Virus record (IMG/VR): IMGVR_UViG_3300031084_000275
Location: 2,102-66,101 of that record
Origin: a virus
Reading direction: 5' to 3' (one strand)
DNA length: 64,000 nt
Under the pieces are notes generated by a model that saw nothing but the letters and a program-made list of their open reading frames with translations, was not told the origin of the DNA and did no database searches. Within the stretch, counting starts at the first letter, position 1. Every line of letters starts with the position of its first letter. Position numbers and translations under genes: made by a program. This document shows, piece by piece, positions 4,313 through 34,844 of the stretch.

Positions 4313-5067
4313 ATGGACAAATATGAGTTGCGGCGCGAAGCGCTCGCGGCGCTTGTAGAGCAGCTTGGACAGGCGGCATTGCGCGGGTAGCACGCGCTAT
4401 CGAGAAAGAACCGAGCTACGTGTCTCGGATGCTCTACGGCCCGGAAAAAAAGGCCGAAAAAGAATCGGCGAAGACTCGGTCGAGGCGCTCGAACGCGCCT
4501 TCCCCAATTGGTTGGACGCTGCAGCCAGGCAGGCGCCAGGCGGCCCAATCACGCCCGTGCCTGCGGCCTTAGCCAACATAACTGCCGCACAGGGCCAAAT
4601 CGCGGTGTGGGATTCGCCAGCAGACCTGCCGGAAGATGACGGGCGGGTGTGGATCGATCGCTACGACTACCAGTGCTCAGCGGGTACCGGTGTCATCCAG
4701 TGGGAAATTCGCCAGAAGCGCGCGCTGCCCTTCACCAGTGAGCTCTTCAAGGCAATTGGCTCGAAAACCTGCCAATTGCCGTCTTGGAGTGGCTCGCGGG
4801 CCAAGCATGGAACCGTTCTTGTTCGACAAGGACATGACCATGATCGACATCAGCAAGACTGCGGTGCGCGACGGCAACATCTACGCGGTGTGCCTCGAGG
4901 AAGAGTCGCTCGTCAAGCAGGTGCTCAAGGAATCGGGCGGAGTACTGTCGCTCCACTCCTACAACCCACGGTTTCCGGACAGCAAGGTGCTGCTGGCCGA
5001 GCCGACCAACTTCCACATCGTGGGCGAAGTGGTCTATCGATCTGGGTCGGGATGGACCGGGTCGTGA
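4313..5067 (+). pseudogene. CI-like repressor with S24 peptidase domain, multiply frameshifted
   Basis: MDKYELRREAL... HTH start; GPSMEPFLFDKD and SLVKQV S24 motifs in different frames. Confidence 0.85.
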
Positions 5068-33998: not shown

Positions 33999-34149
33999 GT
34001 TGGATTCCTTGGGGTGCGCGCCATCCGGCTATGCGTGTGCACTGGCGCCTGCGGCTCGCGCCTTCCAGCAATGCCGGCGCGGGCGATATGCGAAGTCCCG
34101 CCGATTTACCCGTCGGCGGCAGGCTGGACCTGTAATTTTCGGGGGCAAT

Positions 34150-34395
34150 TCAGTCGAAGGTGAACTCGACGCGGCCGAACACCTGCTGCAGCTTGAGCCG
34201 GTCGCGGCGGCGGTTGATTGCCAGCCACCCGGCGGCGTCACGCTGATGGATGACTGCGACGCCGCGCTTGGTATCGGCGGTGACGCACTCCTTCTGTTCC
34301 ACACCGTCAACGAAGACGCGGACCTTCCTGCGGCTCGGGCCCAGGGCGCGGTATGCCGCGAAGCCGGGGTCGCCTTTCTCAACGGAGAAGCGCAT
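34150..34395 (-). CDS. Small phage hypothetical protein
   Basis: MRFSVEKGDPG...FGRVEF; AGGA RBS. Confidence 0.6.
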   Translation of the reverse strand: MRFSVEKGDPGFAAYRALGPSRRKVRVFVDGVEQKECVTADTKRGVAVIHQRDAAGWLAINRRRDRLKLQQVFGRVEFTFD

Positions 34396-34545
34396 CGGAG
34401 TTCCTGTAGGTCGTGGGGCCGCTTTCGCGGCGGGCGCCGGTCGGAGCCAGTCTGTGGTGGTCGCCCCGGCGGGCGGGGTGCTTCTCTGGACGATGACGGC
34501 GGCTGCTCCCACTGCAAAACGTCGCGCGCGGCGCTTTGCGGTAGG

Positions 34546-34648
34546 CCCTGTCGGCGGGGATTCGAACCCGCGGAGTACCCAGCATTGCCTGCATCGGCCC
34601 TGGCTACCCTGTAGATGCGTCAGCCTTCAACCTCTCGGCCACGACAGG
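34546..34648 (-). tRNA. Class II (Ser-like) tRNA-like element, anticodon indeterminate
   Basis: 7-bp acceptor stem CCTGTCG/CGACAGG, G73, D-arm TGGCCGAGAGGTTGAAGGC, T-arm GGGTTCGAATCCC; anticodon region expanded and poorly paired; no encoded CCA. Confidence 0.5.
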
Positions 34649-34653
34649 ATTGG

Positions 34654-34724
34654 TGGAGCGGGTACCGGGAATCGAACCCGGGCGGCATCGTTGGCAACGA
34701 CGACGGCAACCACTGCGTACCCGC
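34654..34724 (-). tRNA. tRNA-Gly(GCC) with truncated D-arm
   Basis: GCGGGTA/TACCCGC stem, U73-CCA, TTGCCAA loop, CCGGG-TTCGATT-CCCGG; D-arm GCA-GTGGT-TGC. Confidence 0.75.
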
Positions 34725-34725
34725 A

Positions 34726-34802
34726 TGGAGCAGAAAGGGGGAATCGAACCCCGCCCGGCCGGCCGGCTTGGAAGGCCAGCGACGCGCCACGCGCTTTCCT
34801 GC
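34726..34802 (-). tRNA. tRNA-Gly(TCC) with truncated D-arm
   Basis: GCAGGAA/TTTCTGC stem, U73-CCA, CTTCCAA loop, TTCGATT T-loop; D-arm CGCG-TGG-CGCG. Confidence 0.7.
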
Positions 34803-34812
34803 TCTGAGATGC

Positions 34813-34844
34813 AAAAAAGCCGCCTCGGTTTCCCTGGCGGCTTT
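34813..34844 (-). terminator. tR'-like terminator upstream of the tRNA cluster
   Basis: AAGCCGCC...GGCGGCTTTTTT. Confidence 0.7.

Follow-up and report, generated by a model that had tools for sequence, protein, structure and literature searches.

Two adjacent genes on the minus strand of a 64-kb stretch of viral DNA (hereafter the window) encode glycine tRNAs with a strongly reduced core. The window is part of the 68-kb IMG/VR provirus record IMGVR_UViG_3300031084_000275, which ends at a host tRNA-Leu(CAA) gene. Alignments with homologues show that the compact shape is, as far as sequence comparison can tell, an inherited design kept by selection and not the outcome of decay. This design comprises 0–1 nucleotide (nt) after the acceptor stem, a D hairpin of 4–5 base pairs (bp) with an NGG triloop, a linker of 1–3 nt and often an anticodon stem of 6 bp. 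It retains only the G18–G19 contact to the T-loop and drops the U8–A14 core. With some reserve, we regard it as probable that the pair represents two working elongator glycine tRNAs, which form a two-gene accessory cassette ('moron') in a variable slot of the prophage.

ARAGORN called exactly two tRNAs in the window, Gly(UCC) at 34726..34802 (77 nt, score 105.6) and Gly(GCC) at 34654..34724 (71 nt, score 108.9), both on the minus strand, both with a compact core and separated by a spacer of 1 nt. This bears out an earlier note on this DNA, which had placed two tRNA-Gly genes at 34654-34802. Further features described there were read directly in both genes: a full acceptor stem of 7 bp with G1–C72 and C2–G71, U73 followed by an encoded CCA, a normal anticodon loop of 7 nt with U33, C35 and C36, and a T-loop of the usual TTCGATT type. 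Likewise, U8 is lost in both genes (position 8 is C in Gly(GCC) and A in Gly(UCC)), and the shrunken D-loop that was said to keep the GG is a UGG triloop in each.

For Gly(GCC), the best reading of the D-arm is one linker nucleotide, a 4-bp stem (GCAG/UUGC), the triloop and a 3-nt linker, followed by a 5-bp anticodon stem, a 4-nt variable loop and a 5-bp T stem. It can alternatively be drawn with an 8/4 acceptor/T branch via C8–G65, a pair that is formed in the minimum-free-energy fold. In Gly(UCC), A8 is followed by a 5-bp D stem opening with a G.U pair, the triloop, a 1-nt linker and a 6-bp anticodon stem; the variable loop has 9 nt and the T stem 4 bp, positions 49 and 65 being unpaired. 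The 3-nt linker that the earlier note had assigned to both genes is thus present in Gly(GCC), whereas in Gly(UCC) it arises only if a 4-bp D stem and a 5-bp anticodon stem are drawn instead. The distance from the acceptor stem to the anticodon stem is 15 nt in both genes (14–16 nt by alternative stem boundaries), compared with the usual 18–22 nt. The canonical core (U8, a 2-nt linker, a D-loop of 7–11 nt and a single nucleotide at position 26) is found in neither of them. Gly(GCC) scored 31.9 bits with the tRNA covariance model RF00005, for which the gathering score is 29. The best Rfam match of Gly(UCC) was the selenocysteine tRNA (tRNASec) model RF01852; its 36.9 bits fall short of the gathering score of 47, and the score with the tRNA model was even lower. 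Both genes are called by ARAGORN, and both are atypical by the covariance models.

The bacterial glycine identity elements are U73, G1–C72, C2–G71, C35 and C36 (PMC9976931), and all five are present in both genes. G3–C70 occurs only in Gly(GCC); Gly(UCC) has A3–U70, as do its counterparts in a homologous metagenomic prophage (L118) and in Aeromonas phage AhP_Mru1. Both genes also retain what the tRNA elbow requires, G18–G19 and the T-loop elements.

The Gly(UCC) gene matched 220 phage records by BLAST. Full-length homologues in cultured phages are found in T5 (tRNAG1), AKFV33, the rV5-like phage 4MG, Klebsiella phage DP and the Aeromonas phages AhSzw-1 and AhP_Mru1. The T5 tRNAG1 family, distributed over Tequintavirus, Vequintavirinae and the Aeromonas Shenzhenvirus, aligns with the window gene over its whole length. 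Judged by this alignment, the Gly(UCC) gene is a member of an existing family that includes the long-annotated T5 gene. For a detailed comparison, seven sequences were aligned (alignment A3: the window gene and homologues including T5 tRNAG1, AKFV33, 4MG, Klebsiella DP and AhP_Mru1), with a mean column identity of 86%. The family has in common with the window gene A8, the 5-bp D stem opened by G.U and a loop of 3–5 nt holding the GG, as well as the single linker C, the 6-bp anticodon stem, U73 and the encoded CCA. Positions 49 and 65 are unpaired in all seven sequences. The D helix of A3 is 97% paired and two of its pairs change on both sides. These two D-stem pairs and one T-stem pair are G–C in the lineage of the window and A–U in the T5 lineage, switches which are, as read from the alignment, compensatory changes. 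Unlike T5 tRNAG1, the window gene has no bulged C in its anticodon stem, and its variable loop measures 9 nt. It also differs in its setting, being part of a two-gene cassette in a temperate prophage of high G+C content, while the T5-type gene belongs to a cluster of more than 20 tRNA genes in a virulent phage.

The T5 tRNAG1 homologues, too, match the tRNASec model better than the tRNA model and stay below threshold. T5-type copies of tRNA-Gly(UCC) are located at 130-205 of L249 (T5), 145-218 of L250 (4MG), 145-218 of L251 (Klebsiella DP), 130-205 of L252 (AKFV33) and 1501-1574 of L081 (AhP_Mru1). With default settings, ARAGORN made no call for the T5, 4MG, Klebsiella DP or Aeromonas copies. 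Among the matches listed, most phage records carry no annotated feature at the Gly(UCC) site. A pattern search for Gly(UCC), combining acceptor stem, TGG and anticodon loop, yielded only chance matches in coding DNA.

For Gly(GCC), a search pattern was used in which only the opening five bases, the anticodon loop, the T-loop and a short 5′ half were fixed. It hit 5 loci in viruses, 29 in genomes and at least 119 stretches of metagenome sequence. Set aside were 3′ halves of ordinary tRNA-Gly genes at integration sites with a chance GCGGG upstream, and archaeal tRNAs starting 2 nt earlier. The remaining matches exhibit one architecture with an NGG triloop and eight different, fully complementary D stems, and the same architecture recurs in seven tRNA arrays of metagenome-assembled genomes (MAGs). 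The window gene and 17 others were aligned (A1, 18 sequences). The common structure is 94.5% paired, compared with 37–47% when the partners are slid against each other; its D helix is 97% paired and three of the four pairs have changed on both sides. The window gene fits the register of this class without gaps (7-bp acceptor stem, 0–1 nt, D hairpin of 4–5 bp, NGG triloop, linker of 2–3 nt, U73). Many members have a 6-bp anticodon stem, whereas the window gene has one of 5 bp. This compact-D tRNA-Gly(GCC) class was defined in the present analysis and is not a published family.

Genes of the class were located in tRNA clusters of large viral contigs (107–350 kb) and in arrays of 14–23 tRNA genes in Steroidobacteraceae-like MAGs, where the hairpin D-arm is also present in Cys, His, Trp, Ala and Arg tRNAs. 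A housekeeping tRNA-Gly(GCC) with compact spacing was not detected in any of 185,579 species genomes, as far as the pattern reaches. BLAST searches of cultured phages with the window gene and two compact class members returned only ordinary tRNA-Gly genes or att-type 3′ fragments. On these searches, the Gly(GCC) class was found only in uncultured phages and in arrays.

The sole true homologue of the gene pair found is in the metagenomic prophage L118, analysed in its extended form as L260. Its order is as in the window: first the two protein genes known from there, then a hairpin and U-run, Gly(UCC) (4798-4870, with a 5-nt variable loop), a 1-nt spacer and Gly(GCC) (4872-4942). The tRNA genes of window and L260 are 91–97% identical, compared with approximately 55% for the 60 nt upstream. 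Between the two Gly(GCC) genes there are six transitions, none of which breaks a pair: one double compensatory change of A7–U66 to G–C, three substitutions that create or remove a G.U pair and one within the variable loop. By itself, this comparison of substitutions is only suggestive.

The earlier note had considered the shared deviation to be selected rather than decayed, and this view gains from three lines of evidence: the traits and D-stem covariation of the T5 family, the eight different D stems of the GCC class and the pairing-neutral changes in L260. Random, uncompensated decay is not what the aligned homologues show: the D helices of A1 and A3 are both almost fully paired and contain covarying pairs.

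Reduced cores of this kind have precedents. The pyrrolysine tRNAs (tRNAPyl) of M. barkeri, D. hafniense and M. alvus and the mammalian mitochondrial (mt) tRNA-Ser(UCN) adopt the L-shape and work on the ribosome; tRNASec, in which a long D stem carries a 4-nt loop, does so as well (PMC7609411, a review that does not mention phages). In tRNAPyl and mt-tRNA-Ser(UCN) there are 0–1 nt between acceptor and D stem, the D-loop has 4–5 nt and the U8–A14 pair is absent. Both window genes are similar (0–1 nt, D-loop of 5 nt or less), their 3-nt D-loop being even smaller. The 6-bp anticodon stem of these tRNAs is found in window Gly(UCC) but not in window Gly(GCC), and the anticodon stem of M. alvus tRNAPyl has an unpaired base on its 3′ side, as have the T5-type genes. 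Like the window genes, mt-tRNA-Ser(UCN) retains G18–G19 and the T-loop motif, whereas tRNAPyl has neither. The variable loop has 3 nt in tRNAPyl and mt-tRNA-Ser(UCN) versus 4 and 9 nt in the window genes, and identity and biological setting differ. The likeness is one of shape only, and the sequences are not homologous.

Window Gly(UCC) further resembles tRNASec and the allo-tRNAs in its long D stem, tiny loop and 6-bp anticodon stem. Neither identity can be assigned. A tRNASec was rejected because the anticodon is UCC and not UCA, a variable arm is lacking (the loop has 9 nt, that of L260 has 5 nt), the acceptor/T split is 7/4 and the discriminator is U73 instead of G73. An allo-tRNA was rejected because the variable loops of 4 and 9 nt form no stem and the genes have glycine rather than serine identity and U73. 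The acceptor/T branches of the window genes are 7/5 or 7/4, compared with 8/5, 9/4, 8/4 or 9/3 in tRNASec and allo-tRNAs. The 8/4 split of allo-tRNAs could be formed by window Gly(GCC) through C8–G65 but not by other members of its class, and in the UCC family A8 faces C65. Irregular tRNAs, including 8/4 tRNA-Ser and tRNA-His, have been described in phage tRNA clusters (Mukai et al., PMC5389517). The architecture is a variant of known compact-core tRNAs.

How would such a pair work? The early-right genes end at the terminator, the slot lies between it and the packaging genes, and transcription of the pair would proceed by read-through or antitermination of this terminator. RNase P and 3′ trimming would then free both RNAs from a dimeric precursor, as the 1-nt spacer and the encoded CCA suggest. 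Because the complete identity set is present, both tRNAs would be charged by the host glycyl-tRNA synthetase. The UCC anticodon would read GGA and GGG, and the GCC anticodon GGC and GGU, so that all four glycine codons would be covered. In the prophage, glycine is encoded by GGC (59–64%), GGG (15–17%), GGT (11–17%) and GGA (7%). The GCC gene serves the commonest glycine codon; hence the coverage extends beyond rare codons to the whole of glycine decoding, and rare-codon supply explains at most the Gly(UCC) gene. Most probably, the benefit is a glycine-decoding set that is independent of the host tRNA-Gly pool. Such a set fits either a boost in capacity or the replacement of host tRNA-Gly under attack.

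The T stem bears on the use of the tRNAs in elongation. At pairs 49–65, 50–64 and 51–63, Gly(GCC) has C–G, C–G and G–C, and Gly(UCC) has an unpaired position, G–C and G–C. Staphylococcal tRNA-Gly species devoted to the cell wall have A49–U65, U50–A64 and A51–U63, which bind EF-Tu weakly (PMC7826273); this non-proteinogenic set is present in neither gene. G.U is the commonest 49–65 pair of the GCC class and belongs to the type with which proteinogenic tRNA-Gly binds EF-Tu tightly (PMC7826273). The complete identity set, the elbow elements, the compact relatives that work on the ribosome and the absence of the weak T-stem set together argue for elongator tRNAs.

Several observations weigh against two working elongators. 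The covariance scores of both genes are marginal, and the family-wide unpaired 49:65 of Gly(UCC) could weaken EF-Tu binding. T5 is listed as specifying a tRNA-Gly (PMC4810235), but the one detected biochemically may be a different tRNA from tRNAG1. In simulations, random transitions in Gly(GCC) break no pair in 7–16% of cases (P 0.07–0.16). L260 was the only true homologue of the pair detected, and the cassette is absent from four of the five close relatives of the slot, hence dispensable. Among 80 loci related through TerS, 10 have tRNAs upstream of TerS; all of these form ordinary cloverleaves, without homology to the pair. Finally, the variable region of window Gly(UCC) (34750-34767) contains a (GCCG)n run with four extra bases, giving 9 nt compared with 5 nt in L260, which looks like replication slippage. 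In the predicted structure the insertion pairs with the D strand, and a fold other than the cloverleaf is 6 kcal/mol more stable than the cloverleaf itself; the L260 sequence is predicted to fold unaided into a cloverleaf with a D hairpin. As the insertion favours a non-cloverleaf fold, the window copy of Gly(UCC) may be impaired or weakened.

The replacement of attacked host tRNAs could in itself be the reason why the cassette is kept: immunity systems of the host or of competitors would cut or modify cellular tRNA-Gly, and the compact D-arm and core would make the phage tRNAs poor substrates, so that late protein synthesis goes on. We consider this possible but, on balance, doubtful. Phage tRNAs do rescue infection from systems that target tRNAs, for instance T5 tRNAs in the case of PARIS and retron Eco7 (PMC11464382, PMC11555353), and T5 is represented in the family of Gly(UCC), further tRNAs of this phage being known to act against defences. 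Rare-codon supply does not account for a complete decoding set that includes the commonest codon, and the compact architecture was found only in phages and mobile tRNA arrays and not in the housekeeping tRNA-Gly(GCC) of the species genomes searched. On the other hand, no defence system that targets tRNA-Gly or recognizes the D-arm was found in the literature searched, and the known escape changes of T5 tRNAs affect the anticodon stem-loop, not the D-arm. Moreover, the design is found in tRNAs of many identities and may be a general trait of fast-evolving mobile tRNAs. The earlier note's suggestion of tRNAs that withstand tRNA-targeting defences would correspond to this explanation.

Quite unlikely, in our estimate, is that the genes are hitch-hiking relics, a cassette acquired from a tRNA-rich phage and drifting to loss, with at least window Gly(UCC) already dead. 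The slippage insertion with its 9-nt variable loop and more stable competing fold would be expected of such a relic, and so would the low detector scores of both genes, the aberrant third tRNA-shaped element that adjoins the pair and is missing from L260, the lack of the cassette in most relatives and the merely suggestive substitution test. However, all 'defects' apart from the insertion are conserved family traits with covariation. The tRNA genes are far better conserved than their flanks between window and L260, and identity elements, loops and CCA are intact.

It is highly improbable that the RNAs act outside translation, be it as nuclease or toxin decoys, non-ribosomal aminoacyl donors or signals for the processing or stability of the late transcript: the unpaired 49:65 of the UCC family does alter a T-stem position on which EF-Tu affinity depends (PMC7826273), some irregular tRNAs are reported to be charged yet not used in translation (PMC5389517) and a site right after a terminator would suit RNase P processing, yet G18–G19, the canonical T-loop, U33 and the full glycine identity are kept, which a decoy or processing signal does not need, the Gly(GCC) T stem is strong, unlike that of the staphylococcal cell-wall tRNA-Gly, the similar tRNAPyl and mt-tRNA-Ser(UCN) are ribosomal (PMC7609411), and no gene for a Fem-type transferase was found among the proteins scanned. 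The non-ribosomal role proposed in the earlier note is accordingly disfavoured, and two elongator tRNAs remain our preferred interpretation.

The genomic setting of the pair resembles that of a late-leader cassette. On the minus strand, genes for a DnaB-type helicase, a RusA-like resolvase and small conserved proteins are followed by genes for proteins of 150 and 99 amino acids (aa), a hairpin with a U-run, the tRNA genes, a third tRNA-shaped element, a small phrog_3540 gene, and TerS, TerL and portal. The terminator is thus directly upstream and the packaging genes are downstream. The TerL DNA is 81% identical to that of Pseudomonas phage PS-1, and the element is a lambdoid, Pseudomonas-type prophage.

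The hairpin (34813..34844, minus strand) consists of a G+C stem at ~34841..34819 and a run of six U at 34818..34813. It begins 13 nt downstream of the stop codon of the 99-aa gene and ends 10 nt before Gly(UCC). With a predicted folding energy of -22.3 kcal/mol (z -2.8), it represents a credible intrinsic terminator; a simple consensus scan missed it because of an internal loop. At the same place, L118/L260 has a hairpin and U-run of different sequence (-24.3 kcal/mol, z -3.7). Since the same arrangement is present with a different hairpin, it can be argued that the arrangement matters. The 10 nt leave no room for a promoter, which is why the tRNAs would be made only by read-through or antitermination; no promoter-like site was recognized in a scan upstream of the pair.

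The gene directly upstream of the terminator, P0001 (34857..35156, minus strand, 99 aa), matches phrog_20616 of unknown function (9.7e-26) and no Pfam family. Every relative examined has it beside the cassette slot. Upstream of it, P0002 (35153..35605, minus strand, 150 aa from the conserved Met13) has an N-terminal NWSRWCW motif and a C-terminal helix-turn-helix resembling sigma region 4. Only eight homologues of P0002 were found among 5.8 billion proteins (alignment A4), and NWSRWCW is invariant among them. A P0001 homologue of 96–99 aa follows the P0002 homologue immediately downstream in all five loci examined (L257–L261). The AlphaFold model of P0002 has a predicted local distance difference test score (pLDDT) of 60.8 overall and of 70–88 over the C-terminal helices. 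Its top Foldseek matches are −35-binding domains of extracytoplasmic function (ECF) sigma factors with weak E-values, and the antiterminator AlpA appears at rank 29. P0002 can be regarded as a candidate late-gene regulator on the basis of this model. None of the four upstream proteins matched a Q family in Pfam, and a profile search of PDB sequences found nothing, solved Q proteins included. The earlier note had placed the pair behind tR′ and under control of Q. The terminator 10 nt upstream, with a different hairpin at its place in L260, agrees with the first part, whereas no Q protein was identified, and Q-dependence of the pair is no more than possible.

The region between the terminator and a conserved GC-rich junction at ~34515-34541 is a hot spot for cargo. 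In the window it contains the two tRNA genes and the Ser-like third element, in L260 the two tRNA genes only, Gly(GCC) running almost straight into the junction. The other relatives carry unrelated genes and no tRNAs in the slot (L257, 4780-5470; L258/L259, 2100-5300 in L258; L261, 2100-5580). This cargo includes PhageMetallopep, putAbiC, DUF4145, DUF6173 and small open reading frames (ORFs) on the reverse strand. The third element (34546..34648, minus strand) has a D arm of the Ser type and good acceptor and T arms around an expanded middle without a normal anticodon arm. ARAGORN called it only with the intron option. It had no BLAST match among 50,697 phage records and is absent from L260; this suggests that it was inserted later or else lost from L260, and that it stands outside the conserved pair. 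Downstream, a 162-aa ORF rich in Arg, Pro, Ser and Ala (34029-34517, minus strand) was rejected as a gene by its composition and looks like an out-of-frame artefact of high G+C content. A 120-aa frame at 34150-34512 on the same strand, which provides the phrog_3540 match, is the likelier gene.

Accessory tRNA genes at such a position are known from Shiga toxin (Stx)-converting lambdoid phages, in which ileZ-argN-argO lie between Q/pR′/tR′ and stx and encode ordinary cloverleaves that read rare codons. The window resembles these phages in having a small accessory tRNA cassette where the late region of a lambdoid prophage begins, right after a terminator. It differs in that neither a Q gene nor pR′ was identified and that Gly(GCC) reads the commonest glycine codon.

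A second comparison concerns mobile tRNA arrays (PMC4758250, PMC8421152, PMC6409571). The compact Gly(GCC) is a conserved member of arrays of 14–23 genes and of viral contigs, whereas the window, with two or three tRNA genes, is not an array. The D-arm design is not described in the array papers searched. In two of the arrays, a tRNA for which ARAGORN gives a four-base anticodon (gaga) and which has an enlarged loop was observed (L093, 7807-7891; L094, 6613-6697). It stands beside many low-scoring tRNAs, including compact-D Arg, Trp, His and Ile(UAU)-like genes that have long inserts.

The D-arm had been called unusual. Both genes are indeed atypical by covariance models, but the same design exists in coliphage T5. 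What seems to be under-appreciated is the spread of the design in phages and its systematic miss by annotation. As tRNA finders and most deposited annotations miss the compact genes, phage tRNA counts and analyses of codon supply are biased. The presence of the design in T5 makes the question of why phages keep odd tRNAs testable in a model system. For the prophage itself, the cassette is a pair of accessory genes in a hot spot for cargo, where early and late regions meet. If the tRNAs work as proposed, bacterial translation would tolerate, in nature, a core as reduced as that of tRNAPyl or mitochondrial tRNA-Ser(UCN), which is relevant to tRNA engineering. A broader idea, which is speculative and which we hold to be unlikely, is that compact-core tRNAs form a distinct structural class confined to phages and mobile arrays, with at least six identities and a range from T5 to soil jumbo phages, that is kept because it escapes host factors reading the normal core. 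These factors might be, for example, defence nucleases, toxins or modification-dependent quality control, and the prophage would then carry a self-sufficient, immunity-proof pair for the decoding of glycine.

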